64,000 nt of DNA from Amphiscolops sp. MND2022 (Eukaryota): positions 35,652,001-35,716,000 of the forward strand of contig OZ076409.1 in the NCBI GenBank assembly GCA_964187785.1, in the 5' to 3' direction. Of the stretch, positions 25,190 to 63,248 are shown in pieces (position 1 is the first letter of the stretch; every line of letters starts with the position of its first letter). A model generated the notes under the pieces. It was not told the origin of the DNA. It searched no databases and was given only the letters and a program-made list of their open reading frames with translations. Position numbers and translations under genes: made by a program.

Positions 25190-25489
25190 CATCTAAAAAG
25201 AGCGCGCAAACAACTGTACCATTTAGTGTAGAGGGCAACTGTAATAATACAGCACTGGCTATATTGTAACATTCAATTTGCGAACCGCTGAGCTGAAAGA
25301 AGTTTCACCGTTTTTACTGAACACTAGTTCTGAAGAGTCTAACACCAAGAACGTCAAGGTATTGAGATGATGTTTCTTGAACATTTTTGCAATTATTAGT
25401 TTTGTTGCTTCTGAATTTGTTTTGCTTACTATGATGTTCTTTTCCTTTGTTCTTTCTCCGATAGCAAATTCTGTTTTTAACCTTCAGGG

Positions 25490-28400
25490 ACTTGCTAGAA
25501 ACTTTCTCGAGAGCCGCTTGGATCTGTTTATACACCGGCGGTGCTCAGGTTGTTTTCTTCCCGAATGCGAAACACTGTTTGATGAGCTTTGAAGGTATTC
25601 GACATTTGAGAACGGTTTGCTGAATTGCTTTTGATTAATCAAGCACTCTAAATAAATATATATACAGACAATCAAGCAGGAGGCAATCATTGTTAAATGA
25701 AGTTACCCAATTCCTCTACGAAAAGAAGGTTTTGGTTTGAGAGAGCAGGAAAACTTTGAATAGGAAGACCAGAAAAAAACTTGATTAAAAAGTCAGAAAC
25801 ACCATTTAATTCTCAATTTCATTGGTTAGCTTTAGATGAAACATTTCTACGTAGAGTTATCATTATTGGGGACTCGAATTTTGTGCGGTGCGTGTCACAT
25901 TTCGTGGAATCACATCTCTTAACAGCTGCAGTTCAAGTGAGTAGTTCGTTCGTTGAAAGTTACATGATGTTCGATTGATTCTAATGAACGAGTCGAATTG
26001 TCAGTAGCAATGGACAATGGTATCCTGGAAAGGGATTGCGGGCTAAGTTTCCGGGGGCTACGTGCAATGAGCTTCATCGTCCGACGTTATCCTTTTCTGT
26101 GAAAAAAACAGACCTGAGCCAGCATCCTTGGACTGTCAAAAAGCCAGATGTAGTAGCCAGCTTCCAGCGTTTCAAGAACGTATGTGTTGAACAACAGCAG
26201 GGTGTTGTTCTTGTTAGAATTGGGCTTCTTCAGAAGGCCAGACGCTATACTCTCTCTTGTACAACAAACAAATCAATTACTGTATCAAGGTATGCCTCAT
26301 TGCTATGCCAGCCCAAGAGACATTAGAGACTCGGGACATATCGGAAAAGATAATGTTCACTTTTGATTTTGAGTGTTTACCAGGCTGCCCGACTATTCAA
26401 CTGTATAATTGAACCAGTTTCATGATTGTTTTCGTTTGGTTCTAAAGTTGGCTGTTTCCTTCTCCTGATGTTCCGTGAACTGATGTTTAGGTTTCCCTTT
26501 TCAGCGTTGAAATCCCTTAGAAGAGAGTCATGAACTTGCACGAGCTTGCGTTAACGAGAATCGCAAAAAATTTCCTAGAAATCCGCTGGGATGTTTCTGG
26601 CATCCGAGGAGTTCAAGGGTTGTTGCTTCCCTGATGCCTATGAATGTATGCTGAGCCTTGGAGAAAGTGAAACTTTTTTCATTGAAAACGGTGTTTGTAG
26701 TTGCTGAAAATTCTATGGATAAAGTTGATAGACTGCCAAAAATGTGTTTTCTACAATTTGTGAATTATGTTTTCATCAGTACCTCTAAATATGTATACCT
26801 TAGATCGTTGAAAAACCGAAAACCTCAAGATCATTAAGTTAGCACATTTTAAATCTTTGCGTTTCGAAAGCTCAAATTGCCTAATCCAAATCTTCTGTCT
26901 GAGCGTGAGTTGTCGCAAAGAAGATGTCAAGTTGTCTATAAAGGATGATTTAAAGACAAACTCCTTCGATTTTGCAGCTTTGAAACTCCAGTTTTTTCGA
27001 CTGATGGTTCACAACCATCTCATTTACACATGGTTCTCTGTTCTAGATAAATAACCCCCTTTTGTTTGGAAACTTTGTTTGGTAACGTTTGTGTGGACTC
27101 GGTTAACGAGACATGCTAGAAACTTTCTCGAAAACAGCTTGGATCTGTTTTTACACCGGCGGTGTTCAGGTTTGTTTCTTCCGAAATGCGAAACACTGTT
27201 TGCAGAGCCTTGAAGGTTTTCGACATTTGAGAACGGTTTCCTGAGTTGCTTTTGAATAATCAAGCACTCTAAATAAATATATATACAGACAATCAAGCAG
27301 GAGGCAATCATTGTAATATGAACAGTTACCCAATTCCTCTGCGAAAAGTTTGTTTTGGTTTGAGAGAGCAGGAAAACTTTGAATAGGAAGACCAGAAAAA
27401 AACTTGATTAAATAGTCAGAAACACCATTTCATTCTCAATTTCATTGGTTAGCTTTAGATGAAACATTTCTACGTAGAGTTGTCATTATTGGGGACTCGA
27501 ATTTTGTGCGGTGCGTGTCACATTTCGTGGAATCACATATCTCTTAACAGCTGCGGTTCAAGTGAGTAGTTCGTTCGTTGAAAGTTACATGATGTTCGAC
27601 TGATTCTAATGAACGAGTCGAATTGTCAGTAGCAATGGACAATGGTATCCTGGAAAGGGATTGCGGGCTAAGTTTCCGGGGACTACGTGCAATGAGCTTC
27701 ATCGTCCGACGTTATCCTTTTCTGTGAAAAAAAACAGACCTGAGCCAGCATCCTTGGACTGTCAAAAAGCCAGATGTAGTAGCCAGCTTCCAGCGTTTCA
27801 AGAACGTATGTGTTGAACAACAGCAGGGTGTTGTTCTTGTTAGAATTGGGCTTCTTCAGAAGGCCAGACGCTATACTCTCTCTTGTACAACAAACAAATC
27901 AATTACTGTATCAAGGTATGCCTCATTGCTATGCCAGCCCAAGAGACATTAGAGACTCGGGACATATCGGAAAAGATAATGTTCACTTTTGATTTTGAGT
28001 GTTTACCAGGCTGCCCGACTGTTCAACTGTATAACTGAACCAGTTTCATGATTGTTTTCGTTTGGTTCTAAAGTTGGCTGTTTCCTTCTCCTGATGTTCC
28101 GTGAACTGATGTTTAGGTTTCCCTTTTCAGCGTTGAAATCCCTTAGAAGAGAGTCATGAACTTGCACAAGCTTGCGTTAACGAGAATCGCAAAAAATTTC
28201 CTAGAAATCCGCTGGGATGTTTCTGGCATCCGAGGAGTTCAACGGTTGTTGCTTCCCTGATGCCTATGAATGTATGCTGAGCCTTGGAGAAAGTGAAACT
28301 TTTTTTCATTGAAAACGGTGTTTGTAGTTGCTGAAAATTCTATGGATAAAGTTGATAGACTGCCAAAAATGTGTTTTCTACAATTTGTGAAATATGTTTT

Positions 28401-30463
28401 CATCAGTACCTCTAAATATGTATACCTTAGATCGTTGAAAAACCGAAAACCTCAAGATCCCTAAGTTAGCACATTTTAAATCTTTGCCTTTCGAAAGCTC
28501 AAATTGCCTAATCCAAATCTTCTGTCTGAGCGTGAGTTGTCGCAAAGAAGATGTCAAGTTGTCTATAAAGGATATCTTAAAGACAAACTCCTTCGTTTTT
28601 GCAGCTTTGAAACTCCAGTTTTTTCGACTGATGGTTCACAACCATCTCATTTACACATGGTTCTCTGTTCTAGATAAAAAACCCCCTTTTGTTTGGAAAC
28701 TTTGTTTGGTAACGTTTGTGTGGACTCGGTTAACGAGACATGCTAGAAACTTTCTCGGAAACAGCTTGGATCTGTTTTTACACCGGCGGTGTTCAGGTTT
28801 GTTTCTTCCGAAATGCGAAACACTGTTTGCAAAGCCTTGAAGGTTTTCGACATTTGAGAACGGTTTCCTGAGTTGCTTTTGAATAATCAAGCACTCTAAA
28901 TAAATATATATACAGACAATCAAGCAGGAGGCAATCATTGTAATATGAACAGTTACCCAATTCCTCTGCGAAAAGTTTGTTTTGGTTTGAGAGAGCAGGA
29001 AAACTTTGAATAGGAAGGCCAGAAAAAAACTTGATTAAAAAGTCAGAAACACCATTTCATTCTCAATTTCATTGGTTAGCTTTAGATGAAACATTTCTAC
29101 GTAGAGTTATCATTATTGGGGACTCGAATTTTGTGCGGTGCGTGTCACATTTCGTGGAACCACATACCTCTTAACAGCTGCGGTTCAAGTGAGTAGTTCG
29201 TTCGTTGAAAGTTACATGATGTTCGACTGATTCTAATGAACGAGTCGAATTATCAGTAGCAATGGACAATGGTATCCTGGAAAGGGATTGCGGGCTAAGT
29301 TTCCGGGGGCTACGTGCAATGAGCTTCATCGTCCGACGTTATCCTTTTCTGTGAAAAAAACAGACCTGAGCCAGCATCCTTGGACTGTCAAAAAGCCAGA
29401 TGTAGTAGCCAGCTTCCAGCGTTTCAAGAACGCATGTGTTGAACAACAGCAGGGTGTTGTTCTTGTTAGAATTGGGCTTCTTCAGAAGGCCAGACGCTAT
29501 ACTCTCTCTTGTACAACAAACAAATCAATTACTCTATCAAGGTATGCCTCATTGCTATGCCAGCCCAAGAGACATTAGAGACTCGGGACATATCGGAAAA
29601 GATAATGTTCACTTTGATTTTGAGTGTTTACCAGGCTGCCCGACTGTTCAACTGTATAATTGAACCAGTTTCATGATTGTTTTCGTTTGGTTCTAAAGTT
29701 GGCTGTTTCCTTCTCCTGATGTTCCGTGAACTGATGTTTAGGTTTCCCTTTTCAGCGTTGAAATCCCTTAGAAGAGAGTCATGAACTTGCACGAGCTTGC
29801 GTTAACGAGAATCGCAAAAAATTTCCTAGAAATCCGCTGGGATGTTTCTGGCATCCGAGGAGTTCAAGGGTTGTTGCTTCCCTGATGCCTATGAATGTAT
29901 GCTGAGCCTTGGAGAAAGTGAAACTTTTTTCATTGAAAACGGTGTTTGTAGTTGCTGAAAATTCTATGGATAAAGTTGATAGACTGCCAAAAATGTGTTT
30001 TCTACAATTTGTGAATTATGTTTTCATCAGTACCTCTAAATATGTATACCTTAGATCGTTGAAAAACCGGAAACCTCAAGATCCCTTAGTTAGCACATTT
30101 TGAATCTTTGCCTTTCGAAAGCTCAAATTGCCTAATCCAAATCTTCTGTCTGAGCGTGAGTTGTCGCAAAGAAGATGTCAAGTTTTCATAAAGGATATTT
30201 TAAAGACAAACTCCTTCGTTTTTACAGCTTTGAAACTCCAGTTTTTTCGACTGATGGTTCACAACCATCTCATTTACACATGGTTCTCTGTTCTAGATAA
30301 ATAACCCCCTTTTGTTTGGAAACTTTGTTTGGTAACGTTTGTGTGGACTCGGTTAACGAGACATGCTAGAAACTTTCTCGAAAACAGCTTGGATCTGTAT
30401 TTACACCGGCGGTGTTCAGGTTTGTTTCTTCCAAATGCGAAACTGTTTGCTGAGCCTTGAAGG
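25490..30463. repeat. Tandem triplication of a ~1.63-kb unit inside WDFY intron 4
   Basis: Same ORFs recur at 26184, 27810 and 29436 (period 1626); a diverged partial copy follows at ~30810-30950. Confidence 0.95.
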
Positions 30464-33920: not shown

Positions 33921-35415
33921 ACAAGACGGGAACGTCTAAAGTCGGCGCTATATCTAGGGCTCAAAAAAGCGCAATTTTTTAAATTTGTTAAAGGGGGGAC
34001 CCTTTCGACTTTTTGAAAATCCAGTCTGTTGCAAAATATCAAAAAAGTTGAGGGGGACCCTTTGGAGACATTAAAAAATTCGGAAAAAAAGTCGCACAGT
34101 GCGAAAAAAAATTGAGTCACACAGTGCCGAAAGAAATTGGTCGAAAAAGTTTCTGGCTAAAGCAAGGACTCGAACCCGTGACCGCTGGGTTCACCGTAAA
34201 CCCAGTACTGACGAGTACATGTGAGCGAGAGTGAAGTCTGTAAAAAGTGGTGAGGTCTGTGATCGCGATGAGGTCTGTGGTCTGACGAAAAAAAAAGAAA
34301 ACAAGACGGGAACGTCCCAAGTCGGCGCCATATCTTAGGCTCAAAAATATTCAAGGAAAAACTATTGGAAATATTTGGAAAAAATTTTTTCAAAAAAGTA
34401 TTTGTTAAAAAAGTCGCACAATGCCGAAAAACCTAAAAAGAGTTCATTTAGGCTCATTGAACGTTTTTTACAAACCGAAAACTTCAAATAACTCAAGGGG
34501 GTACCCTTTGATAAAATTCGAAAAATTTCGAAAAAAGTCGCATAGTGCCGAAAAAAACCCAAAGGGGGACCCTTTGGTCTCACCTGTACTTTTGGAAGCA
34601 TTAAAAAAGTTATGGTTCAGTGCGAGAATCGAACCTACGCTCTCCGGCTTGGTCGAAGATGAACAAATATGAAAGATAAACAAATTGTAAGAAAAGTGGA
34701 CCACTCAGAGTGAGATTGTCAACTGAAAAAAAAATAAACAAGACGGGAACGTCTAAAGTCGGCGCTATATCTAAGGCTCAAGAAGCGCAAAGTTTTCTAA
34801 ATATGCTTAAGACGTATTCATGAAAAGCTTTGAAAACACTTTCGAGACACCCAAAGTGTGCCTTTCATGCTCGATATGACTGGAAAATCACTGTTTCCCG
34901 ACTGGGAACAAAATAAAATTTGAAAACTTTTTTTTAGAATTTTTTGTGAAAAAAACTTCGAAAATGTCGCATAGTGCCGGAAAATGAAAAGGGGGACCCT
35001 TTGGGATTCATTAACATACATTCTGTTGCAAAATATCAAAAAACTCGAAGGGGTGACTCTTTTGAGACCGTAAAAAATTTTCGAAAAAAAAGTCGCACAG
35101 TGCCGAAAAAAATTGAAAGGGGGGAACCCTTTGGTCTCTTCCGGTTTTGTAGGTTACGTAAAAAAGGTAAAAAATGAAAGGGGGGACCCTTTGCACTAAG
35201 TTTCCATTGGCCTGACTTGGCCTGAGTAGTCTTATCAGTTTCTGTAAAAAGTGGTACATACGCGATGAGCTCTGTGGTCTGACGAAAAAAAAAGAAAAAA
35301 ACAACTAGCCACTGTAATGGTCGGGCTTTTTTCCTTAAAGAAAAAGGCGCCGACTAAAAAAACTAGCCACTGTAAGAGTCGGGCACTTTTCCCTAAAAAA
35401 GGCGCCGACTAAAAA
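33921..35415. mobile_element. Three nested HINE-like copies inserted into gag
   Basis: acaagacgggaacgtc starts at 33921, 34301, 34738; duplicated ggcgccgactaaaaa termini; gag resumes afterwards. Confidence 0.8.
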
Positions 35416-37472
35416 TAAAAAAGGACATTCATCTGGGCACTGGGCGAAGACCGGGGTAACGGATGTGACCAAAACAGTCAGAAATTATGACCCAAACAAA
35501 ATGAATATAAATCAACTGTACTCCCTGTTCAGGCTCCATTTCATACCGGAGCGAAACAAATTCCACAGCAGAGCCGATTTTTTCGGTATCACCCGAGAAC
35601 CGAACGAAACAGCGGAGGACGTATGGACGAGAAAACTGCAAACAGAGAAAAATTGCGAATTTGATAACGTTACTCCAGCTGAATTAATTGCATCGAAGTT
35701 TCAATCTCTTATCGGAAAATCAACAGGAGATTATGAACTGAAGAAGAAGATCCGGAAGAGCAAAATGACTATTGAAACGATAACCGATATAATACACGAA
35801 TATATGTATGACCGCTTAAACGAGTCCAATAATTCAAATGACAGGAGAGATATGAAACACGTGCAAGGAAGACCGCAGAAAAGAAAATGGCCAGAAAAGC
35901 CCAGTCACAACAAACATAAAGGAATACCGGAATACCAACAAGGAAAATACAAAGATAACCGTTGCGGACAATACGGAGCACCAAACTGCACCAGACAACA
36001 TGTATGTCCAGCAAGAACGGTCGATTGTAGAAAATGCAAAAAGGGGGGACACTATGAGACAATGTTCTGCCCACCGAAAAGAATTGAGCCCGTAAACAAA
36101 ACGTCATCATCAGAATATAATTGGGACTTACGATAAAATTCAAAGTATTCACAACAAGAAGAAAGGCGACTACATCTAGGTAACATTAATGGTGAACAAC
36201 GCACCAATAAAATTCATTATTGACAGCGGATCACCAGTAACATTGATACCACAACGCCTATTCAACAGCATCACAAAGGTGGAGAAAAAGAACACCGATT
36301 ACAAAGATGTCAATACCAAAATTGAATTCGTCGGACAGACGACAGCAACGGTGAAAACAAATAAACGACACTCCAACTGCCGCTATTAATTACAAAAGCA
36401 AACATTACACCGTTAATGGGACTGGATTGAATGAAACAGCTACTAATAACAATCAGCGCAAATACCGCAGAAATTAAAATCCATAACAGACTGGGTGAAT
36501 CTGAAAAGAAAATTATCAAACTGAAGAACGAATTCAATAATTTGTTCTACAATAACGAAAGAAAAGATCTGGTGGTAAAAGTAAATCTGAAGGAAGATGC
36601 AAACATCTTTCAACAAAAGGGACGACCGATACCAATTCATCTACAAGATCAAGTAGCAGAAGAACTAAAAACGCTGATAAAGAACGGTTACTCAGAGAGA
36701 GCAACCGAGTTAACCGAAGATTGCTTCGTAAGTCCACCAGTAAAAACAGTAAAGAAGCATAAATCAGTAAAAATTCCACTGGACTCACGAGTGGAAGCAA
36801 CTAACGAAGCAACTTTTAAAAGAAAACAAATGCCGAACCTGGAAGAGTTTCAAGAATATCACGCAATATATCCGAAGGGAAAGAAGGCGAGATCTGGATA
36901 ACAAAACTAGACTTCGACTACGCGTATGGCCAAATCAAACTGGACGAGAAAACAAGAGACCTATGCATATTCACCGTTACAGTAGAAGAGTTTACGGGGT
37001 ACTGCCGTTTTCTAAAAGGATTTTACGGACTGGCAGATATACCAACAATTTTCCAAGAACGGATAGACAAAACACTAGAATTCAAACACCCCGCGTGGTT
37101 AGACGACATAATTATCGTAACCAAAGGAAACATAGAAGAACACGAAACGGAAACAAAAGAAACAATGAAGAAACTAGAAGAAGCAGGCTATAGACTACAC
37201 CCCAGAAAGTGTGATTTTTTTAAAAAAAGGAACTGAATGGATGGAACACAAAATCGATGAAAACGGAATCAGACCACTACAAGACAAACTGGAAGCGATC
37301 ACAAAAACAAATATACCAAAAAAATAACGAAAAAGATGAAGTCCTTCCTGGGAGCGATACAATACCTATCGAAATACATTGAAAACCTATCAGCACAAAC
37401 CGATATACTAGGATAACTAATGAAAAAAAAACAACATAACGCATATACCATGTTTAGCACACTACAATTCAA

Positions 37473-50026: not shown

Positions 50027-51078
50027 CTATAACAAACGAAATCCTCCTATAAGCTCTCAAATATGTGGATTCTGTACCTCTTTTCATTCAATCAATAACA
50101 TCTGTTATTTTCGGTAGGTTGTTATATTCATCATCTTGAAACGTTCAAATTGTGTTACTATTGTGTTACTAGAGTGGGACAGTAACTTCCCAGGTTGACC
50201 CTCTTACTAGCATATTGGCTGTCTTGGCAAGATCTTGCCAAATTCTTACTATATCTTGGCGACCATGGAACCCATGGCAAGGTTTTTATTAAGATCTTAC
50301 TAAGATGATACATTATTCCAAGATCTTATCTTGTAACGATGGACAAAATTCTAAGATTATAAAAAACACTATACCTTCGATACAAACAGCCGAGACTCAA
50401 TCTAAAGGCTCATTACACCCAATAACGACTATTTCTACTCGTTTTCGTAATCAAAATGCTTCGACTTGTTGAAACAAATTTGAATGCAAAAATGTGCGAA
50501 AATTACGATAACGTATTCTGGCTTCCGAAATTCTGACGAAAATCCTAATAACTCCTCACCTGTTTAAGACTGAGAAATGTGAATGTACCAAATGAGAGCT
50601 CACTTCAAGAGCTTTTGAAAACTTGTAACTTTTCTGACGCAGTTGTTGGTAACGGTTTTGCAATTATGGAATAATTTAACCAGTGCCTCTCTCAATAAAG
50701 AGCATAAGGACTCTTCACAATCAAATTTTATACCTTGCTAACAGGAAATTGTCATGTCAAGCAATGTAAATCTGCCTAGATGTTTGAAAATAAAATGAAC
50801 AAGACGAGAACGTCTACAGTCAGCGCTATATCTAAGCCCCAAAAAGCGCAACACTTTTCCGAAAACTTCAAATTTTTTTCTTTTGGATAATGTCGCATCG
50901 TTCCAAAAAATGTAAAAGGGTAAAATGTATTTTGTATCTGAATGAAAGCGCTGGAATAAAGTTTCGCAATATGGAAATGAAAAACAACAAAGAAAGTGTT
51001 GCAATCACAGCACTGACATTAATCCCAAAAGGGAGCTTTTGAACTTCTCAGGGAAGATCTTAAAAGAAGGGGGTGATA

Positions 51079-53361
51079 TTACAAGTGAGTGATAGGTTGT
51101 TCGATTTCGTCATAAGGGTTACTATGAGTAGTACGCTTTTGCATTTTAGAGGTTGATGGAGTGATTTGGTGGTGTAGTTTATTTACTTTTGTAACTGGTA
51201 CTACACAGTGTTTTCCACTGCCAATATTGGGGTCAGCCATGGCATCATGGAAATCATCGTCGTGAACAGTTAAAAGAGGGCGCAGTTTGATTTTCTTATT
51301 TGTGGTTTTATCATGGTGTGTGAATGAAAGAAGACGTCTTAGAGGGGCGTATCGAAAATACAAGAATGTAAATAAAATGTGAAGCGCCATTGATATGATA
51401 AAAGAAACTATGCCCATGATTATTGTTGTGCGAAAATTAGCGAGAGAATCAAATTTTTCACTATACATATTCTTCATGTGAGTCATTTTGATTGCTACTG
51501 GTTTAGCAATTTGATGGAGTGTGTCGTCATCTTTTGCGAGTGCAGGTGACACATATTGTATTTCGTCTTTGATTGATTTTAGGAGCGCAATGTTTGCTTG
51601 GCTTCTCGTTGCATACATTGGCAATTCATCAATGGATGGGAGAGCAGTGAGAACGTTTGATAGAGGAACTGGTAAATCTACATTCATGATGGTTGCAGGG
51701 ATCTTCGAACAGCTCTGCAAATCATAACGAATCCTGATGTTGGGACCCGAAATCTGCTTTCCACAAGCAAGCGTGACGACGCATATTCGGCATCCAGGGA
51801 AGCTTGAAGATCCAACTGGGGTTGAGGAATTCATATACGATTCTGTTAAAGTATAGTCAGCGGAAGCGGCGGTTATTAGCCAAATGCCATATCTGAGGCT
51901 AACAGCACGTTCCTTGATGGGCAAGGTCACAGGTTTCACGTCGCATACCTTCATGGCTTGCACTAAGTTCCCAAAGAAGAGGAGACTGAGACAGGAGGAT
52001 TGGACTCCTTCTGTCGCAAGACCCTCGTGACAGATGCTATAACGCGAGGAACCAATACACATGTCCAATTGATTCCTGGAGATAAGGGCTGTTTCTCGAC
52101 CATCTTCCGATACAGCCAGGTACTCAGATTCAATCTCCCATTGAATCGCTTCAACATCATCCACCTGGGGCATGGGAAGTGGGAGAGCCTGGTAGGTGGT
52201 CATAACAGTCCTTCGGGAGGCCAGAGGTATGGACATTGTCAGCATTAATCCATGTGGCAGAGTCAAGACATCTTGCAGTAATTGAGCTTCGTAATAGGAG
52301 AGTAACTCCTGAATTGGAATGGCAAGAGTCAGACGGTCCAAAGCACGGATTTGTTGAATGGCAACTTTATTTAGAACAATTTCGAGAGACTCCTTGCTTA
52401 AAAGTGACATAGGGACGTACTTGCTGAGAAGAGCTGGAATACTATTCAGCAAGTTTATTCTGTATGCAAAAAGAGCAGCTCGGTAGCTCTTAATGTTCGA
52501 ATAAAACAATGAAAGCAAAGAAGAAACCGTATCGAAGTTGAAGTTGATCTGCTGTCTGGAGTACAGCATCTGATCGCAGTTTCTCATGAGGTGCATGTCC
52601 TGTTTGAAGGTATCCATTTGGGTTGCCATTACTTCCCAGTTTGCATTCTGTATAGATCGCATTTGTTCCTGAAGATCATGCAGTTTGTGTAGCTCTTTAC
52701 TGACGATATAGAACTTGTCATTCGTTTCTTCATTAAGTTCTTGAACACTGTCAGACAATGAAGAAGCTACGTCAAACAAGCGGTTAATGTTTGCAGCATT
52801 TTTGTCAGATTGACAGCTACCAAAGATTCCACTAAGCCCGCAACTGCCTGGACCCATTGTTATTCCAGCACCGAAAAGTCCAATTGCACCCAGTGCGGCG
52901 GCAGCAGCTGGTACAGCTCTCTTGGTGCGGTCAGCAGAATTGGGAGAAATGGGCTTCAAGAATGAGGCAGTTTCCTGTTGCATGGATTGGAGCTCGGCAG
53001 TGGCAGCATCTATCTCGTTCTGTACTTCCTTCCTTAGCCAGTCAACATTGAACCCTTCCATGGACAGATTTGTAAATTTCAAGTTGCAGTTATACGATGG
53101 CATTTTCCAAAGAGTTTCCAAAACAGATGTTAAATGAGTTAATTCCTTTTGAATTTGTACATCGAATTGAGGAAATGGCAATAGAAACTGGATATTCACA
53201 AATTTTTCGGCTAACAAGATCTTCTTGTCTTCATGAAAGATTATCCCTTTTTTAAGGGGGCCATCAGAGGTGTCATATGGTAATACCGGAGATTGTAGGT
53301 GTACCAATGACATAAGGGAAAGAAAAACAAGAAGTTTAAAGGTGATGAGGCGAAAGTCCAT
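51079..53361 (-). CDS. env: Envelope glycoprotein, class I fusion protein-like (760 aa)
   Basis: Signal peptide; furin site RTKR then A/G-rich hydrophobic fusion peptide AVPAAAAALGAIGLFGAGITMG; heptad repeats; Cys-rich region; TM IIMGIVSFIISMALHILFTFLYF; cytoplasmic tail. Confidence 0.9.
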   Translation of the reverse strand: MDFRLITFKLLVFLSLMSLVHLQSPVLPYDTSDGPLKKGIIFHEDKKILLAEKFVNIQFLLPFPQFDVQIQKELTHLTSVLETLWKMPSYNCNLKFTNLSMEGFNVDWLRKEVQNEIDAATAELQSMQQETASFLKPISPNSADRTKRAVPAAAAALGAIGLFGAGITMGPGSCGLSGIFGSCQSDKNAANINRLFDVASSLSDSVQELNEETNDKFYIVSKELHKLHDLQEQMRSIQNANWEVMATQMDTFKQDMHLMRNCDQMLYSRQQINFNFDTVSSLLSLFYSNIKSYRAALFAYRINLLNSIPALLSKYVPMSLLSKESLEIVLNKVAIQQIRALDRLTLAIPIQELLSYYEAQLLQDVLTLPHGLMLTMSIPLASRRTVMTTYQALPLPMPQVDDVEAIQWEIESEYLAVSEDGRETALISRNQLDMCIGSSRYSICHEGLATEGVQSSCLSLLFFGNLVQAMKVCDVKPVTLPIKERAVSLRYGIWLITAASADYTLTESYMNSSTPVGSSSFPGCRICVVTLACGKQISGPNIRIRYDLQSCSKIPATIMNVDLPVPLSNVLTALPSIDELPMYATRSQANIALLKSIKDEIQYVSPALAKDDDTLHQIAKPVAIKMTHMKNMYSEKFDSLANFRTTIIMGIVSFIISMALHILFTFLYFRYAPLRRLLSFTHHDKTTNKKIKLRPLLTVHDDDFHDAMADPNIGSGKHCVVPVTKVNKLHHQITPSTSKMQKRTTHSNPYDEIEQPITHL

Positions 53362-53796
53362 GGTGGTGTGATCGGGTGATCAACTAAATTTGGTTCTTTT
53401 GTACAAATTTGGAACTTTTGGTGATTTCTTGAATAAAGTTTAACTTTCAAAGATACTTGTTTCTAGATCGGTTCGCAAAGAAGTGAGGCGTGGTAATGTT
53501 TACATCCGGAGATGAGGAAGTTCGGTCATTTCAATATTTGAACCAAACATTTGTTCATTTGCGATTATATCGAGTAGTTTGTTTCAACTCTTGAAGTTCC
53601 TGCTTTCTTTTAAACAGTCTGTTTATTTGTTTGAGTCTTCTACTTTAGTTTCACAAGTGAGTACACATGTTTGAGTAGTTTTCGAGTTTTTCAGAGTCTG
53701 TGTGTTGTCTTAGGACAAATTTGAATCTAATCTAAAAAGTCAAGTTGTCTAAGCTAAAATCTACAGTCGAAGTCTTCTAAAGTCTACAGTCAAAAG

Positions 53797-54048
53797 ATGT
53801 GTGACATCGTGTCGTTTCTCAAGTTTGTCCTTTTGTGTTGTCCTGAAGGGACTTACGTTAAAGAAGGAGATCGGATGATCTCGTTTAAAAGAGAAAGGGA
53901 CAGCAGGTGCCCTCCTCTTATTATTCAGTCAGAGTCAAAAGTTGACACGGAGTCAGTTCTGTTGGTCTTCGTCATCATAGGGATGATCAGTCTCTTGCTA
54001 ATGTATTATATGTACAAAGTGTATAAAGCTTTCGGACGTCAACGTTAG
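53797..54048 (+). CDS. Putative 83-aa single-pass membrane protein, antisense within the retroelement
   Basis: Hydrophobic run VLLVFVIIGMISLLLMYYMY followed by basic KVYKAFGRQR; no recognised homology. Confidence 0.45.
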   Translation: MCDIVSFLKFVLLCCPEGTYVKEGDRMISFKRERDSRCPPLIIQSESKVDTESVLLVFVIIGMISLLLMYYMYKVYKAFGRQR

Positions 54049-54342
54049 TGTACAGTTAGAGAGTCGAGTCAGATGTCAGTCAGTTAAAAACTAAACTAAT
54101 TCTAAACTATAGATGTATCTAGTGTATAACTGTAGTTAGTTGTATTTTTATAGTTTTATACAGTTTTGTAGAGTTTTGTATAGTCAGTTTTTGTATATAA
54201 GTGTAGAGTTGTATAATCGAGTTTGTATATAGTCGCGAAATTCAGTATTTCGTGAAGAAAGAGTTTTCTATAGGATCTAATAGTTATAGTGAAGTTTTTG
54301 GCTTGATTTTCGTCAGTGTTGCTCATTTAGGAATTGTAAATC

Positions 54343-55728
54343 ATGGATATGTATCTGCGGGAAGCTATTATGAAATATCTTGAGACTCAAGAAGTCAACG
54401 ATGTTGTCTTGGCAACCGCAGAGAAAATGAAGAATTTTCGTCGGTTCTGTGATACCCTTATCTTGAAAGACAACAAATTGCTGTGCAAGGGAAGGTCTGG
54501 TGAAGAACCGAAGGTGATCCCTACCCCTCAACAAGTGGACGAATGTCTATTTGAACATCATGTGGGGCATCTGGGTAACCACCTAACGGACAGACAAACC
54601 CTTGTGAAGGCATTGTCTAATGCAGGTTATGGGTATCCGGTCCGATTTGGGGGGCTCGCAGCTCTTGTGGACGAGTGAGTAAAAACGCGAATTTTGCACA
54701 ATGTTGGACAACAGGCAAGTAGAAATGGCATGATCATTTACAGGTTTCTCCGGAATTGTCAAACCTGTTTCTTTTCCGGGGTCGCAAGACCAAGGGAAAG
54801 AATGTTTCCTGTGTCAGTGGCTAGGCGAATTGAGCTTTGTGCGAAATTCAACTATACCTGTCAATGGGAAGAGGTTGGATCCTCTAGGACAGGCGAGACA
54901 ACGATGGAGTTAGACAGTCCACGGAAGAAAGAGCCTATCGGAAAACTAGCGGAAGTCGGAGGGGAGTGTTTCTTCTCCTCCATTTATTACCTACTAGTCG
55001 GGCGAAAGTCTGGTAAGAGAATATCACATAGTTGGAAAAAAAACTAAGATTTTTTTTGTTTTTTTTTTTGTTAAAAAGTGAAAGCGACTAATATGAATGT
55101 GTGTGCAGATCGACATAGCACTAACGAGACCAAGAAGTGTCGTGCTATTCGGATAGCGGCCATGGAAGTAGCGAAAGACGCCGCGTTCAAGAAGTTCTGC
55201 AAAGAAACTCTTGGAACGGCAATTAGCGACTTCATGGCTCAGGAATGTGCCAAAGCGACAGTAGCCGTCACTGAGCACGGGGTTAGGAAAAATATGGTCA
55301 GAATGAAAAGTAGTAGAGTACATAGAGGCGAAATGTGTAAAAAATGCAACATTTTCGCAGATGCTGGCCACAGCAACACTCCTGCAGACTGACATTGCAG
55401 TATACTGGCAGTATCAGAATGGAGGGGGCTGGGTCAGATACCGTTATGGAGAGGAGTCAAAGGGCCGAACTGGGGTATTCCTGCTTCAGTGCATTCAGGG
55501 CGGTCGAGGCCACTATGGTGCATTCCATTGTGAACCCCTATGGGACTATCCTGAAGCTTAGTGAGTGAAATCACAAAAAACGAAAAAAGCAGAAATTGGT
55601 TGTTCGGGGAACATTGTGTATTTTTTCGCAGTGTAATGCCTTTAAAACGACATCGGGGGCTCACGCAGGAACCCTGGGACAGCGACGAAGCTGAGGGAGC
55701 GGTGGGAGGGAGTTCCACGGCTATTTGA
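54343..55728 (+). CDS. Antisense 5-exon gene, join(54343-54674,54744-55012,55109-55281,55361-55560,55632-55728), 356 aa: integrase/Ginger-like H2C2 zinc-binding domain plus OTU-like cysteine protease domain
   Basis: Four short GT-AG introns (69, 96, 79, 71 nt) all restore frame; splicing joins HH.GHLG.H... to FLRNCQTC and builds GGECFFSSIYYLLVG...IR...TEHGMLATATLLQTDIAVY...W...GHYGAFHCEPL. Confidence 0.8.
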
Positions 55729-56331
55729 CGACAAAAAATGTAAGTTAAAATCATCCAAAAATTTGAAAAGCATGTATAAGGTCAGTTTTTTGACGGAAAA
55801 ATCAATGAAAATAAGATAAAATTGTACCAAATATAGGGTTATAGGGTACCATTAGACGCGTATTGAAGAGAAAAATCCAATGGGGCCATTTGCAAGGGTC
55901 TACGACCAACCAGTGTGGAGAAATAGGCAAAAAACTGAAATTTTCCAAGTTTGGGTCAAAAATGGGACGTAAGACAAGAATTTAAAAATTTTTGTCTCCA
56001 ATTTTCGATTTTTATGGCTTAATCGGTCTATGGGGTCAAAATATGTCGATTGGGCAAAAACCAGAGGTATCCAAAGTGATTTGGTGAAGTTAGAGACCAA
56101 AATGTGCGGCTAATCTGAGGTATTTTTCGTAAGCAAATTTTTGATCAAATTTTCACTATGGAAAAGTACGGGGGGTCGGAAGGACGGTAGGAATGGATTC
56201 TCCTGGGGCTAACAAAGATAACGGTACCAAAATTATGCGGCTCCGATAAATATTTGTGGAGAAAACTTGAAAAAATGACGAAAAATGTCACTTTTTTGGT
56301 CAAAACTGGTCGATTTTTGGGATTTTGTGGA

Positions 56332-59300
56332 CTATTTCCACGGGGGATTGTGAAAAAATGAGGTTTTTTTCGGTTTTTGGCGTAATCTGGTATCACGCTG
56401 AGGCGATTGTGAGGATTGTTGAGTCGTACGATCATATATCGATGGTATGATTACATCTGGATAGCGTTCTTGAAGTGTTAATTCAGCATTTGGGGTTTGG
56501 GCTGAGGAGTCACAAAGTGAGCTTCTAGGCGGCGGAGGGGGGTAAAATGGTGATTGGGCCTCAAATTGAGGGTGGCTAGGATGAAGTGGAGTGCTAGAAG
56601 CCATGTGGGAGGTCTGAGTCAAAATGCGAGGTCTAGTTGACATAGTACGTGATATAGGGGAAATCGGTCTTGGTATTCTAGATTGGAAAGAAGGTGGTGG
56701 TGACACCATAGTCGGTAAAGGGGCACTCGGAAGGGTGCTCGGGTGGGTATAGGTTACAGTGGTGTGTGTTGAACCACCTTGAGGGTTATAAGAAGGTCTA
56801 TTGAGACAACGATCCGCTCGGGACAAAGTTTGACTATCGAAACCCAAAAATGTTGAATTTGATGAATTTATGTCTGATGAAGAATATATACGGGAAGGTG
56901 TTCGAGATCTAGTCAAAATGCTAGAGGAAGGGTCACACAGCGGTGGAGTTGCATGTGAAACCACAAAAGCATCAGAATTGTCAGTAGACGACGAATACTG
57001 AGCATTATCATCACTAGAACTGGTGTCTAAAGCGACATCATCTAGTGTGAAATTGTGGTTTACTGGGAGTTCATTAAGATCATCCTGTGGCGGTGCCTGG
57101 TTCAAAGGCGGAGCCATGGGAGGCTGGGGTGCCAAAGGAGGCGCGGGAGGTGCAGCTGGGGGTGCTACACGACGCGGAGTGTAATAAAATAAAACACTCG
57201 GAGCATCAGTAATTTCGTCTGTAGGTGTAAACGACTTGTCAGTTAAAAGATCAGGTAATGTACTGTCAAAAAGGGACGGTTCCGACGTGTGTCTAGTGGA
57301 CGGATCCGGAACGAAGTTATTTTGATGGATTTGGGCTAAACCTTCAATCTGATACTGAGGGTTAACGGGTCCAAGTCGGATACGGTGTACACATTGTGTG
57401 TAGTTCGTACCAACTTTTCGGACAATATAGTTTGAGTTTGTCAAAACTTGTTCTACTCGGTATAGAGGAAGCCATTTGGCTAAAGATTTTCCCATATGGT
57501 CGTTAACATTGGATAATTTGGGATTTAAAAGTAGACAGTAACGGTGTTTTGTCAAAGGGGCGGCGTTCGCTTTTCTATCGTAGAAGTGTCTATATTTGTT
57601 ATATGCGGTGATAGTGGCATCACGCGCAGCAGAGAACACTTCATTCATCCGATCTTGCATCGAACTAGTGAATTCGTATCTGGTTTCAAGGTTCTGGAGC
57701 GTTCGTAAATTAAAACGGACATCTAGCGGTTTTACCGGTTCACGGCCATGGAAAAGATAAGTTGGAGTACAACCTATTGATACATGGTATGACGTATTGT
57801 GAACAAAAGTCGCTAAGTCGACATACGTGTGCCAGTCCTTTTTGATTTTGTTTTCATAAATTCCAAGATACTGCTTGAGAGACGCATGAGTGCGCTCGAC
57901 GGAGCCAACTGTTTGTGGATGTTTTACAGTGGCGTATTGCATTGTTATTTCAAGAAGTTTTGACAATTCAGTCATTACTTTAGCAGTAAAAGCAGTTCCC
58001 ATGTCAGAGAGTACAGTTTTGGGTATGTATGATGTTCGCATAAAAAGGTGAAAAAGCTGTTTGGCAACATTTGGGGCACTTGCATTTCGTAGAGGTATCG
58101 CAAAAAGATATTTTGAAAAAACATCCTTAGCAGTCAAAATATGAGTAAAGCCACCTGAATCTGGCAATTTCCCAACAATATCGACTTGAAGCAAGTCTCC
58201 TGGGAAATGCTGGTCCACAGCTAGGGACAGAAGCGGAGGCTTCAATGTGGCATGTTTGACTGGTTTGACTTGCAAACACGAAGAGCAGTTCTTGATATAG
58301 TTTGTCAAAAATTCTACAAAATTCGGAAAATAAAATTTTTGTCTAAAAATCTGAGCGGTTTTTGTGATACCGACGTGTCCTGCTGTTTTACTGTTGTGAA
58401 CACGGTACAGAAGTTCTGTACGTAAATGAGCAGGGACAACATATTGGCGGGTGATTGTATTTCCAGTATCATTAAAAAACTTTCGGTATAACACACCTTG
58501 GTAATTTTCCAATCGATTAAAATGTTTAAGGTATTTACGTAGTTCTGAACTCATGTATGGAGATGGGTCTGGAGGATGGGTTTCCATCCAATGTAACACT
58601 AGCTTGATGTTAGCATCTTTTTGTTGTTCCTCTCGGAGATTTAAAGAAGTCATCTTGTCAGTTAAATCAAATTCATCAAGAGGATTGGGAGCATGCAAAG
58701 CGTTCAGTGATTCAAAGGCTTTTGAGCAAGTGTTTCCAATTTTAAACGGCATGCAATCGTAGCGGATTGCGTTCACTGATTTATCTGGTACTTGCATTCC
58801 CATTTTTAGTGTTACATTTTTGACAGGTATTTGAGAATTAAAGCGGAGTTCAAGCTTTGTATGGGGGTGGACATGAATCCTAGACAAGTAATCCGCGGCA
58901 GCATTGGCTTTGCCCGGAATATGTCCAAGGACAAAATTAAAATTCAACACGTGGTCCACACAGGTCCAAAGACTAGATGGTATGGTCTTAGCTTGAAAGA
59001 AGCGTGTTAAACTACGGTTATCAGTTAAGACTAGTACTGGTTTAGTGCTACCCCACAAAATGTGTGCAAAAGTGTCAAAAGCAAAATGCACGGCCAAAAA
59101 TTCTTTAGCGTAGATAGACAGTTTCAGGTACGTAGGCGTGAAAATTTTCGATCCAAAAGAAACGGGGACGTAAGTTTTATAAGTTTTACCTGATTGGTCA
59201 GTAATGTAATCTTCTATCATTAGTACATAACCGGCAGCATAGAAACTTGCATCGGTTAGGATTACATACTGTGCGTTAGCTTTCGGTAATCTGAGAGATA

Positions 59301-61382
59301 AGGTACAAGCTTGTTCAAGATCTTTTCGCAAGGTTTCAATTTGTTTATGGTGTTCGTCTGTAAGAACAGTTTCGTTTTCTTGGCGTAAAAGTTTGTAAAA
59401 AGGTAGAAGTTTTTCTCCTAACTTAGGTATGAAAGCTCGAAAATATTGGAAAAACCCAATAAATCGGCGAATTGGTTTAGGCGTTTTCGGAACTTTGAGC
59501 GTAGACAAAAAGTCGGTTACTTTTTTCTTGTCTGGTTGCATACCTTCGTTGGTGATTGTGTTACCTAGAAAGGTCATTTCTTTCAATCCAAATTCACATT
59601 TACTTGGAGTAAACTTCAAACCTGCCTTCTCTATGCAAACAAAAATTGCTTTCAAGTTGTTAATGAATTCGTCAAAGGTGTTAGCAGCGGTGCCTAAGTC
59701 ATCTACGTATTGAAAGCATTGGTCTGCTACAATACAAGGGTAGAGATATTTACGCATAAAAGAGCTAAAAGCACTAACTGAGCGACTAAGTCCTTGTGCT
59801 AAGCGTAAATAGGCAAAAGTACGCGACAAAAAGTTAAAAGAGAGAAGCTGCACTGACAGAGGATCTGCCATTTGCAGTACGTGATATGCTTGGCTACAGT
59901 CAAGCTTTGCAAAGAATTTCTTTCCTGCTAAGTGTGCGCTTACGTCTGCTAACGTTGCAATCGGAAAATTATGGTTATCATAGTCATGTCGAATAAGGTG
60001 ATTTATTCGACGAAGATCTACCAAAAGACGGAGTTTACCAGAAGGTTTTCGAACTGCAAAGATGGGGCTAGAGTATTTCGAATACTTCAGTGTGGTTATC
60101 ACACCCCAATACTGTAACAAGGCTAGTTCTACTAACACTTCATCACGGTAATGAATCGGTGTAGGCGGTCCTTGAGTGTACATAGGTTCATCGTGTTCTG
60201 GCGTTAGTTTAACTTTGAAATCATCGTTTTTTCCAATGTCTAACCTATGTCTAGCAAAAATGTGGTGGTAGTCTAAGAGAAGGTTTTCTACTGTACGTCT
60301 TTGTTCACTATTAAACACGGAATTTTTCCACGGAAATTGAGCTAAGAATTTCTGTTTGTCTAAGGCGTTTGAGATAGGATCTAGTTTCTCTTCTTTTTTC
60401 AGTTGAACAATTTCATCGTAAATGCGTTTTTCAATTCCAGTCAATGTTTCTGGATTAGAACAATTTTCGGGAGTTGGAAACCAAAGCTCATCTGTCGACG
60501 GTGAAACTTTGATCTCCGAATCCTGAATAAGCGCATTAATGTTCTGGTTAAAGTAATTCGACAAAAGTTGTGGGTTTATAGGCTGTAGGTATTCGGCTTG
60601 TTTCGGTGTTAGTATCGTGATTCGTGCAATAACAGAATTTTTCTGAACGGTAACTTTATGAGGCAAAACATTCAAAATGGCAAGTGAAACATCTTGTTTT
60701 GCTTTAAGAGTTATGAGTGCACTAGTGACACAAAGTCCTGTTTGGTTTTCAAATTTAGCATGAGGTTCAATAATGGCTACGGTTCCATCTGGGTAGGAAC
60801 AGTTTGGAAAAGAACATTGAACTATTTCAGTAGTGTTCGGGTTTATCGATAAGGAACTGTTATTTCTCAAAAAATGGTTCTTTTTCGAAGAAACAGCATT
60901 AATTTTTCCATTTGTATGGATTTTTCGGTGAGTTGAAGAGTTAAATTGGGCAGTTTAAGAGTGCGACTCTTTGGGTGTATAGAAATGTCGTTTTTCTCAA
61001 AAAATGGAAGTCCAAGAATCGTTTGATTCATTGTCTTCAGTAGTAAGAAAGTGTCTGTAAATTTTTCGTTTGCAATGTTGAAAGTGGCTTTAAATGTGCC
61101 ATACGTAGGTACAAGTGATCCATTTGCTACTTTAATGGAGCTTGGTGTTGGATCGAAAATGGTTATACTGGTTGGGCTTTCTTTTTGAAGTTTTTTGAAA
61201 TTGTTTAGAGGCATAGCGCTACAAAATGCGCCTGTATCAATAAGAGCTTTAATAGGAAAGGTAAAGTTAATAGGTACTGAGAAAAGTGAAGTGCGAGGCT
61301 TTGAGGATAAAACATTAATAGAGGAAAAAGATGAAGGATTAGGTGAGGCAGAAAAAGAACGGGTTATGTGTGGCTTACCTAG
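56332..61382 (-). CDS. pol: Pol polyprotein (protease, dUTPase-like segment, RT, RNase H, integrase, long Pro/Ser/Thr tail); one frameshift near 60921-60925
   Basis: ALIDTGA protease in the -1 frame after gag; RT LAQG...QYVDD; RNase H TDAS...E..A...TDN...ADYLSR; H.GH...C..C, VDIVG, SDMG, GSVER integrase; 1512-aa uninterrupted ORF 56332-60870. Confidence 0.95.
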
Positions 61383-62584
61383 TTTTTTTGGTTCTGTGCC
61401 ATATTCGCATCATAGTAGGGTGACCAAGGTTGGGTCATCGGGTTGTATTGTGGCATCATCGGTGTAATCATCTGAGGTTGAGAGAATGACGGTTGGGGTT
61501 GGTAGTTGGAAAATTGTTGATAAGGTAATTGAGGCGGTTGGCGATTTTGTGGGCGAAACCAACATTGGGCAATTGTATGTCCAAATTTATTGCAGTGACT
61601 ACAATGGCGTTGAGAAGATTGAGCATTTCGATTGTTGTGGTTATTTCGTCCATTTTGCCAATTATTGTTGCGTTTCCCATTATTGTTGCGATTGTTATTG
61701 TTTTGGCGATTATTCCAGTTATTATTTCGCTTCTGGTTATTCCAATTCTGGTTATTACGTGGCTTGTTTTGTTGCTGATTTTGATTTTGAGAGTTTTGCT
61801 CGTTATTTTTCTGCTGGTTTTGATTTTGATTTTGCTGCATCAGCTGATTTATTGTAGGCTGAATGGTTTTGGTTAAATCTCTGATTTCTTCAGAAATTTT
61901 TGCAGTCTCTTGTTTCAAAGTATCATGAGCAACAGAGAGTGCTTGCAATCCTGACAAAAGTTCTTTATTTGAAGCTGGACTTACTTCATTGAATGCCGTA
62001 TCATCATCCTCTGGATAGAGGCGATCAACGATCATTCTACTGGCAGCTTTTGCGCAGAGATCCTCGATTGTCGTGTCTTCTGGCTGTGTCATCAGAAATC
62101 TTCTGAGTTTGATTGGCATTCCGTTTATGAATGCTTCTCGTACTCGTCTCGCTCTCTCGAGTGCTCTATTTTCAGCAGCAACTGCGGGTCGTCCTCCTGC
62201 AGCAGCTCTGGCAACGACGTTAGGGTAAGCCTCCAATGCCAAACGTTGGAGGTCAGTGAGGAAGTCTTGGGCACTTTCCTCGGACGATTTCAATTTTCTG
62301 GCTGAAAAGATGAGTTTCTGCAATTGAACGGGCTGGTCGTTCTGGTATCTCTCACGAAGTGCAGCTACGGCGAGATCATAGTCAACTCTCGTGGCTTCGG
62401 GCAGTTGATCGAAGAATGTTAATGCACCACCTTTAAGGTGCAAATGCAGATACTGATGACGATCAGCATCGGCAATGCCTGCAATTTGGATGCAGCTTGC
62501 AAGTTGTCTGAGGAACTCATTTAAATTTTCTTTTTCCGTACCCTTAAAGGGTTGAAGATTTACAAAAGGTTGAATTGCGGCCAT
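61379..62584 (-). CDS. gag: Gag (401 aa) with N/Q-rich region and one CCHC knuckle
   Basis: Capsid-like L.GGAL.FF...L.ERY...ES..DF...L..LA; CSHCNKFGHTIAQC zinc knuckle. Confidence 0.93.
   Translation of the reverse strand: MAAIQPFVNLQPFKGTEKENLNEFLRQLASCIQIAGIADADRHQYLHLHLKGGALTFFDQLPEATRVDYDLAVAALRERYQNDQPVQLQKLIFSARKLKSSEESAQDFLTDLQRLALEAYPNVVARAAAGGRPAVAAENRALERARRVREAFINGMPIKLRRFLMTQPEDTTIEDLCAKAASRMIVDRLYPEDDDTAFNEVSPASNKELLSGLQALSVAHDTLKQETAKISEEIRDLTKTIQPTINQLMQQNQNQNQQKNNEQNSQNQNQQQNKPRNNQNWNNQKRNNNWNNRQNNNNRNNNGKRNNNWQNGRNNHNNRNAQSSQRHCSHCNKFGHTIAQCWFRPQNRQPPQLPYQQFSNYQPQPSFSQPQMITPMMPQYNPMTQPWSPYYDANMAQNQKN
61382..61388 (-). promoter_or_regulatory. -1 ribosomal frameshift slippery heptamer A AAA AAC at the gag/pol junction
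   Basis: CAA AAA AAC TAG ends gag; the -1 frame is open through to the DTG protease motif. Confidence 0.8.
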
Positions 62585-62821
62585 TTAGAAAGAAGTATTG
62601 TTTTTTATCAAGAGCGATTTGAATTTGTCAGAAGAAAGCAATGAAATTTTGTTGAAATGAATTTTATTATTCAGTCAGCAGCAGAAGTGAAGAGAAGAGG
62701 TATTGTCAGCATTATCAGCAATCTGAGATGTTATTGTTAGTGAAGTGAGTTCACTGTAGAGAGAGTGGCACTTGAGCATTGTTATATTTTAAGTGATTTT
62801 GGTTTCTGGAGAAAAGGAGAA

Positions 62822-62836
62822 CAGCTCCTGTCACCA
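62822..62836 (-). promoter_or_regulatory. Primer binding site TGGTGACAGGAG (tRNA-Leu-like by inference)
   Basis: TGG directly follows the LTR-terminal ...GACA; resembles the Leu-type PBS TGGTGTCAGGAG. Confidence 0.75.
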
Positions 62837-63248
62837 TGTCATAGATCAAAGATTTAGGCAGAGCGGTGGAAAAGTTTTATTCATTTTGGCAATTCTTCTA
62901 GGAGCTGAAGGGTTCTCTCCTATAGAGATTCTCCGGAAAGTGAGAGTTGATGTTTTGAATAATTAATTAGAGTGTTTCAGAGAGATGAAGGTATTTACAA
63001 AATGTAAGAAGGAGTTTAGCATAGTTGAAGATATACTCAAAATATCGAAAAGAAATGATAGAGGTTCTGGTTGAACGTGTTTATAGTTCACTAGTTCTCT
63101 CAGTTGTGTCTTGGGTCCACTTCCAGTGCTACAGAGGCTTTCCCATCGTATGCGTGTTGATCTGTGATTGGCTGCCACATCTGATTAGTCCACGTCTGTC
63201 CTGAGAATACTTGAACGAAATTTTGTACATGATTCTTGTATCATGACA
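62837..63248 (-). repeat. 5' LTR (412 bp)
   Basis: Terminal inverted repeat TGTCAT...ATGACA; abuts the PBS on one side and interrupted HINE sequence on the other. Confidence 0.85.

Follow-up and report, generated by a model that had tools for sequence, protein, structure and literature searches.

What can an element bounded by long terminal repeats (LTRs) carry between pol and env when that space extends over 3 kb and its genes lie on the opposite strand? The question is raised by a 64,000-nucleotide stretch of the Amphiscolops sp. MND2022 genome (assembly GCA_964187785.1, contig OZ076409.1, positions 35,652,001 to 35,716,000; hereafter the window), in which an initial annotation had described a young, retrovirus-like element with accessory genes. 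The element is a minus-strand copy at 63248-50936, and its pol-env interval (53380-56331) indeed carries plus-strand genes, as had been proposed: one five-exon gene and one small open reading frame (ORF) for a membrane protein. Beyond what that annotation said, we find that the cassette encodes the N-terminal domain of an integrase joined to a predicted OTU domain, that the cargo of the slot is swappable, and that the module is shared with BEL/Pao and Polinton elements. We give even chances to the proposal that the interval is an antisense accessory slot whose OTU protease is predicted to strip the ubiquitin-type marks of host silencing.

The antisense gene between pol and env

We searched the genome at the DNA level with the interval as query and scored 40 of the 174 candidates. 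This returned at least 65 matches. At least 19 of them span the full interval with an identity of 90% or higher, so its conservation is not a matter of chance. A second family (B) turned up at ~74% identity. When 21 copies were aligned, four exons proved to have equal lengths in families A and B, with zero gaps and 73-87% identity; the GT-AG introns are 46-56% identical between the families and contain indels. An apparent frameshift in exon 3 is actually an intron, as the copy alignment made clear, and a four-exon model was superseded by one of five exons after a further exon and the conserved phase-2 donor leading to it were recognized. Nine in-frame positions were allowed in the search for this donor, and the placement is evidently wrong in one of 27 rows. 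The complete model encodes 356 aa and is intact in the window copy.

Over 322 codons, the ratio of nonsynonymous to synonymous substitution rates (dN/dS) is 0.068 for the accessory gene versus 0.052 for a pol segment. Shifted frames gave 2.2-2.8, and opposite-strand frames gave 2.2, 3.8, and 0.14; the frame with the lowest value shares third positions and is interrupted by stops. Of 84 splice sites in the 14 mappable loci out of 16 far-diverged ones, 81 fall precisely on the phase expected, and intron phases are kept across subfamilies in which pol is only ~50% identical. The accessory gene is almost certainly real and under selection. The accessory genes supposed in the initial annotation are thus borne out as selected and spliced.

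A predicted integrase N-terminal domain joined to an OTU fold

For the C-terminal part of the protein, we modeled a family-B copy in which the introns were translated as well and left as loops, and compared the fold with 48,161 PDB representatives. The top 32 rows are all OTU-type proteases. The best match is OTUD1 (Z 8.7, root mean square deviation 4.0, 122 residues aligned), with further matches to OTUB1 (Z 8.4), OTUD3 (Z 8.2), and a nairovirus OTU (Z 7.8); the best-ranked non-protease reaches a Z of 2.8. All 23 aligned rows have H73, H80, C186, and H315, and C116, C119, and E317 are each present in 22. A "GHY" motif had been considered for the catalytic His and was rejected, the invariant His being a later one. 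The predicted structure makes it very probable that the C-terminal domain has an OTU fold, and we lean toward the predicted protease being an active isopeptidase.

A second line of evidence comes from a homologue in another type of element. Nine matches to Pfam OTU were obtained in the genome, and four of them fall in a 7-kb BEL/Pao family with 307-bp LTRs. The homologue in this family scores over the Pfam OTU cut-off and aligns end to end with the profile of the accessory protein (95%, E 2.5e-8). At the level of sequence, it is an independent bridge from the accessory protein to the OTU family. The gypsy-borne exons and intron-retaining read-throughs gave no match to PF02338 themselves.

The first 120 residues of the accessory protein align to the N-terminus of the pol integrase in a profile alignment (probability 89%, E 2e-6), in which six control windows stayed below 1%. 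His73, His80, Cys116, and Cys119 fall on the integrase zinc ligands, and the two best matches of an N-terminal model are the foamy virus and Ty3 integrases, at modest Z scores of 5.1 and 4.5. At the profile and predicted-fold level, the N-terminal part is an integrase NED+HHCC module. Only ~60 residues separate HHCC from the OTU Cys, which leaves no room for a DDE core. Exons and read-throughs had no rve match in Pfam, and neither a DDE core nor GPY/F was found in them.

This composition recalls the Ginger1 transposases of Bao et al., which, in the available text of that paper, combine H2C2, DDE, and OTU domains with GT-AG introns (PMC2836005). The accessory gene shares with them an H2C2 with upstream extension, a C-terminal OTU domain, and GT-AG introns; it differs in having no DDE core or GPY/F and in being a passenger inside LTR elements and Polintons. 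Ginger1 elements are bounded by terminal inverted repeats and a 4-bp target-site duplication. Inverted repeats of its own were not seen around the accessory gene as far as the 25 longest pairs show: none of these flanks the interval, and short or decayed repeats could escape such a list. Because Ginger1 transposases unite these features, we infer that descent from a Ginger1-like transposase after loss of the DDE core would be the simplest origin.

A protein database search with the read-through matched one protein among 2164 candidates, a 98% copy; when cluster representatives were searched with the profile, 54 unnamed fragments of exon size matched. A metagenome match (L087) was discarded, as it consisted of 22 residues in unrelated-looking DNA.

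Several observations weigh against the assignment of this gene to an OTU protease. Pfam scans of interval ORFs, single exons, and intron-retaining read-throughs found no relevant family, and PDB sequence searches with exons and read-throughs returned nothing. The C-terminal model is of low confidence (predicted local distance difference test score 56, predicted template modeling score 0.64), and Foldseek recovered the same OTU families with it, all at E >0.08. The five-exon model is intact in only 7 of the 21 aligned copies, the lesions being mostly private to single copies. A typical OTU consensus has an Asp before the catalytic Cys and a W-G-G motif, and in the accessory protein both the Asp at -3 of the Cys and W-G-G are missing. 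Because of these missing features, the enzyme may be weak or dead or may act on another substrate. The atypical surroundings of the active site, together with the failure of the gypsy-borne form to match the Pfam OTU family, would also fit a catalytically dead scaffold or decoy, that is, a ubiquitin- or nucleosome-binding pseudo-enzyme or an integrase N-terminal decoy that tunes the element's activity. However, few positions are invariant in sequences that are only ~30% identical, and the Cys, the His, and the acidic third residue belong to them, in database fragments as well; a dead enzyme would not usually retain its catalytic residues. We consider a dead scaffold rather improbable.

One slot with exchangeable cargo

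The cassette keeps its place. In a sample of 20 more diverged loci, pol and env flank it on the opposite strand, one on either side, in 15; three of the other five have one of the two genes inside the 10 kb fetched, and two have neither. The count is 15 of 16 for far-diverged loci, where pol is ~50% and env ~40% identical, so that position and orientation are fixed, with pol and env both in place, in 30 of 36 sampled loci. Approached from the other side, the first 88 of 150 env matches include 80 with an antisense accessory exon 0.5-7.5 kb upstream of env. The possibility raised at the outset, that full-length copies lack the interval, therefore fails. Among the eight env matches without the exon, two are covered by one locus that is a gag-env deletion derivative. 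A tandem derivative was also seen (L105:241-4532), in which gag sequence lies ~0.5-0.7 kb from the env start and pol and cassette are missing.

The tree of the accessory protein shares its deep split with that of the integrase, and pairwise identities are correlated (Spearman 0.82, 23 loci; four loci without the integrase segment were left out). This concordance bears on the idea of the cassette as a selfish hitchhiker: the remnant of a non-autonomous transposon that inserts into other mobile elements and whose selection serves its own propagation rather than that of the carrier. In favor of this idea, the module is present in three unrelated element types and is tandemly duplicated in some copies. 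But the cassette has no transposase core, it holds one fixed position and orientation in most of the sampled loci, and its tree follows that of the integrase; a hitchhiker is very improbable. The duplications and triplications, of the whole cassette or part of it, are at L054:2285-5781, L070:3230-7442, and L079:4414-7830. One far-clade copy of the accessory gene (L076:4000-5600) is flanked by 5 kb on each side without pol or env.

We then considered five more distant env relatives, chosen because no OTU exon was listed nearby. The OTU gene left no trace in any of the five, all with pol in place. Their pol-env spacing is ~2.7-4.9 kb, as measured by matches, and in all five an antisense ORF of 240-360 aa occupies the slot. 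Four of the five ORFs have H-x-D/E...H metal motifs, and one matches Pfam JmjC, below the cut-off (E 6.6e-4). A joint profile of the five matched only KDM7/PHF2/PHF8 demethylases in the PDB (nine sequences, best E 3.8e-7). KDM7-family enzymes remove repressive histone methyl marks. With a JmjC-type member as query, the genome gave 101 matches.

When OTU or JmjC was assigned as a label to the env tree, which leaves out two loci without enough env, three changes were required, all forced by well-supported branches, and one JmjC element is nested among OTU elements. The integrase tree likewise needs three changes, two of them forced. As read from these trees, the cargo of the pol-env slot is swappable, with three or more exchanges along the env tree.

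The OTU module is found outside gypsy elements as well. In the BEL/Pao family, the homologue is antisense and lies between pol and the 3' LTR in four of four copies. It is a single frame of 347 aa in one of the two copies translated and is split in the other; it matched six unnamed proteins in the protein database and had no usable Atlas match. In one subgroup of accessory loci, the context is of Polinton/Maverick type in five of five. The layout there is an AGTAGT terminus, the gene ~415 bp inside, a tandem array of a 700-bp unit (2-7 copies), and then PolB-type ORFs; the Polinton copy that we scanned has PolB, integrase, and A32 ATPase. Because the accessory gene of this copy groups with the window clade (support 100/100, midpoint root), the module, judged by sequence, has moved between element classes. 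A Helentron-type frame of 2244 aa (L094:1217-7948, minus strand) has an N-terminal OTU domain weakly similar to the accessory OTU (probability 50%).

These carriers bear on a further explanation, that the OTU protein is an antagonist of innate immunity like the OTU domains of nairoviruses and arteriviruses and removes ubiquitin chains of signaling during env-mediated spread from cell to cell. The fold matches include viral OTU domains (Z 7.4-7.8), the gene adjoins env and a small membrane protein, and its fast divergence fits a conflict with the host. Against this, a homologue is also present in the 7-kb BEL/Pao element, which has no env-sized ORF, and an integrase zinc domain is of no evident use to a cytosolic antagonist. 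We find this explanation improbable.

What could such cargo do for the element? Introns that are antisense to packaged RNA can persist through reverse transcription, given how spliced RNA is reverse transcribed. We propose that the accessory gene has its own promoter and is transcribed antisense to the genomic RNA; because of this orientation, its introns would survive reverse transcription. The integrase-like N-terminal domain would direct the protease to chromatin or DNA, probably that of the element itself, and there the OTU domain would cut ubiquitin or a ubiquitin-like modifier, for example, monoubiquitin on H2A or SUMO/ubiquitin on silencing factors. In sister lineages, the KDM7/PHF8-like demethylase would do the equivalent job on repressive histone methyl marks. 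We favor this anti-silencing role because two unrelated erasers of modifications alternate in the same position and orientation, next to the same small membrane gene. It has points against it too, as it rests on analogy with the JmjC cargo, and one JmjC-type ORF (L101) has no clear metal motif. The role may be put at a shade below even chances. A broader picture, likewise a shade below even chances, is a swappable antisense slot for chromatin erasers (integrase N-terminal domain-OTU or KDM7-like), with the OTU module traded among gypsy, BEL/Pao, and Polinton elements of one genome as a shared means of counter-defense.

The target could instead be the element's own machinery. The N-terminal domain would dock on the integrase complex (or on Gag/Env) and the OTU domain would remove degradative ubiquitin, which would stabilize the integrase complex or release it from target chromatin. 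In favor of this account, the N-terminal domain is an integrase NED+HHCC module, and the three carrier types, gypsy, BEL/Pao, and Polinton, all use a DDE integrase. OTU and Ulp1 proteases are fused to Ginger1, Helitron, and Mutator transposases, where an aid to transposition has been suggested (PMC2836005, available text). This account leaves the JmjC replacement in the same slot unexplained, however. It also predicts a docking domain constrained together with the integrase, and the far-clade accessory protein diverges many times faster. We regard it as unlikely. In general, the accessory protein evolves much faster than the integrase; in the far clade (L071-L086), integrases are near-identical within groups and accessory proteins are 0.3-0.5 changes per site apart, hinting at host-driven fast evolution or frequent exchange of the cassette.

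The second gene of the interval, the small membrane-protein ORF, has a CC-x-x-GT motif, one hydrophobic helix, and a basic tail, and a Pfam scan of it gave no match. Relative to family B, it has no indels and a dN/dS of 0.21. It is found in both OTU-type and JmjC-type relatives, among the latter seen by eye in two of the five. A splice-donor-like site upstream of it (53650-53670) is kept in families A and B, which suggests that the antisense transcript may have an exon there. In the far clade, the small ORFs open with a signal-peptide-like stretch.

The carrier element and its known relatives

The full element measures 13.7 kb and is arranged LTR-gag-pol-[3 kb]-env. This architecture had been recognized correctly; the window copy, however, is 3'-truncated and holds the 5' LTR only. 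No second LTR was found in the 64-kb window, and the copy ends ~970 bp before the start of the 3' LTR in other copies. Gag (401 aa) and env (760 aa) are open, as annotated, and the pol frame runs over 1540 aa from stop to stop, not 1512. The description of the ORFs as near-intact holds with the exception of the protease, which lies in a separate frame, a single break setting it apart from the reverse transcriptase (RT).

Compared with family B, gag shows a proportion of nonsynonymous differences (pN) of 0.078, with synonymous ones (pS) saturated. The A-run at its end is retained in most copies, and uninterrupted copies start pol in the -1 frame; a -1 frameshift from gag into pol at A-AAA-AAC is likely on this reading of the sequence. 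In pol, RVT_1, RT_RNaseH, Integrase_H2C2, and rve all score above the Pfam cut-off, in the order protease-RT-RNase H-integrase with RT_RNaseH families, and there is a single, Ty3-type RNase H. In a PDB sequence search, the RT matched foamy virus RT (E 7e-24) and Ty3 RT (E 1e-22) about equally well; the Ty3 match alone continues through RNase H. The segment between protease and RT (60900-60500, minus strand) had no Pfam match of its own and may be a dUTPase-like remnant; PF00692 is present in 2 of 120 pol relatives listed.

In env, a furin-type RxKR is located at residue 145, and a hydrophobic helix lies around residue 646. A Pfam scan and a PDB sequence search with it gave no match. Its nearest Atlas clusters (0.94-0.96) contain Baculo_F and Fusion_gly members, at a low recognition score of 1592. 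Its motifs back the lead that env may be an F-type fusion protein.

Ten family-A copies were fetched, and two LTRs lie inside the fetched stretch in eight; gag, pro-pol, and env are each in one unbroken frame in two. In 13 of the 15 two-LTR copies measured, the LTRs have 0-6 differences over ~360-413 positions, and the remaining two are older, with 12 and 32. All 15 have TGTC...GACA ends and 14 a perfect 5-bp target-site duplication. They are mostly 13.4-13.8 kb long and are spread across the genome. The family is young, as had been claimed, and two subfamilies spread recently. By its sequence, the element is an env-bearing, Ty3/gypsy-type, recently amplified one. The polypurine tract at the 3' LTR boundary (e.g., L013/L014) is unusually short and purine-poor in 15 of 15 copies.

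The env-bearing layout is already known across invertebrate phyla: Ty3/gypsy elements with an F-type env, the "ancient errantiviruses" of Chary and Hayashi, are widespread there (PMC13524379). The element resembles them in its LTR-gag-pol-env order, its Ty3-type protease-RT-RNase H-integrase, its F-type env, and its many near-identical copies in an animal genome of non-insect type, and differs in the 3-kb pol-env interval with antisense spliced genes. A term search of the main text of that paper found no "OTU," "antisense," or "accessory," and four peptide motifs were not in its seven supplements, files which may contain no protein sequences. The primary filter of the survey was a POL-ENV distance of <=1000 nt, with wider manual windows for some phyla (PMC13524379). 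Surveys that require a short pol-env gap would tend to overlook elements such as this one.

Antisense extra ORFs are known from the plant elements Grande, RIRE2, and Retand TRP28 (PMC7264820, PMC11963269). As here, a conserved antisense gene stands behind pol in most copies and has a proposed regulatory role; unlike here, the plant elements have no env and their ORFs no assigned enzyme activity. The words "intron" and "protease" are absent from the text of the Retand paper (PMC11963269). Enzymes have been captured by an orchid Ty3/gypsy element, with an AlkB m6A demethylase (PMC9289625), and by rotifer LTR elements as ORF3 (PMC5408684). The orchid case likewise joins an LTR element to a captured eraser of a host mark, and in rotifers, too, extra ORFs are common to unrelated retroelement classes. 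The enzymes there are an RNA demethylase, an esterase, and an exonuclease (PMC9289625, PMC5408684), whereas here a spliced antisense gene next to env is the cargo, which alternates between erasers of two types. A term search of the orchid paper found neither OTU nor JmjC (PMC9289625).

Among complex retroviruses, HTLV-1 also has env and a spliced antisense accessory gene, HBZ, as summarized in PMC11963269. In contrast to them, pol is of Ty3/gypsy type here and the accessory protein is a predicted protease. HBZ is a bZIP factor. OTU domains occur in Helentrons and in adintovirus/Polinton PolB (PMC6431247, PMC8502044), where they are fused to a replication protein; here the OTU domain is encoded by a separate gene and fused to an integrase N-terminal domain. 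The Oikopleura Tor elements have env and internal promoters, and no antisense gene is mentioned in the available text (PMC4402516). Imagin (PMC12863088) and Troyka (PMC12440569) were considered and, from the sections at hand, do not match the element. The literature searched yielded no LTR element with an OTU or JmjC accessory gene, with Repbase and most subscription journals outside the search. The backbone is thus a known kind of element, and the accessory system was not found described in that literature.

Invertebrate env-bearing LTR elements have been portrayed as plain gag-pol-env units, and what keeps them active despite host silencing calls for an explanation. In the whole clade described here, an accessory gene that codes for a predicted enzyme is under constraint as strict as that on pol, and it is traded for a second, unrelated enzyme of eraser type. 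Two concrete, assayable proteins can be named, along with a prediction of the host marks that would restrict the elements. Antisense orientation would offer a retroelement a route for the stable carriage of intron-containing genes, and a counter-defense module may move between RNA-based and DNA-based mobile elements.

Table 1. Positions of element features in the window and of related genes at other loci (L numbers)
Feature	Position	Strand	Basis or remark
5' LTR, 412 bp, TGTC...GACA	62837..63248	-	96-98% match to both LTRs of full-length copies
Primer-binding-site position, begins TGG right behind LTR	62819..62836	-	start identical in two-LTR copies measured
gag, 401 aa, Asn/Gln-rich region and C-terminal Cys/His knuckle	61379..62584	-	open frame
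Slippery heptamer A-AAA-AAC, in phase, immediately before gag stop	61382..61388	-	sequence
Aspartic protease frame, apart from RT frame in window copy	60867..61409	-	Pfam gag-asp_proteas E 5e-4, below cut-off
RT-RNase H-integrase (H2C2 + rve), Pro/Ser-rich tail	56332..60954	-	Pfam
Exon 5: short tail, first basic and then acidic, ending in stop	55632..55728	+	conserved phase-2 donor
Exon 4: beta sheet of OTU domain, including His315 and Glu317 of predicted triad	55361..55560	+	alignment, predicted fold
Exon 3: OTU domain, helical portion	55109..55281	+	alignment, predicted fold
Exon 2: Cys116/Cys119 of HHCC, linker, predicted OTU catalytic Cys186	54744..55012	+	alignment, fold
Exon 1: integrase N-terminal extension and His73/His80 of HHCC zinc motif	54343..54674	+	copy alignment, profiles
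Small membrane-protein ORF, 83 aa	53797..54048	+	hydropathy, conservation
env, 760 aa from Met	51079..53361	-	open frame
3' untranslated region remnant, copy ends here	50936..51078	-	comparison with other copies
JmjC-like antisense ORFs	L100:1986-2885, L101:3842-4567, L102:3607-4584, L103:3460-4539, L104:2361-3434		
BEL/Pao integrase N-terminal domain + OTU homologue	L093:4006-5046; also L096, L098, L099	+	starts in 3' LTR
Polinton loci with spliced HHCC-OTU gene	L057:3619-5882; L056, L088-L092		

The remainder of the window contains other repeats. The other retroelements had been called broken, and so they are: gypsy-type remains at 14279-16836 and 35339-36898 (plus strand) have frames of only 156-483 aa, and their integrase is ~31% identical to that of the main element. 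A foldback at 20320-24491 has arms that are 99% complementary and each more than 1.4 kb long, and a 1.63-kb unit is present in three tandem copies at 90-100% identity at 25489-30435. An open frame of 361 aa lies at 365-1447 on the minus strand.

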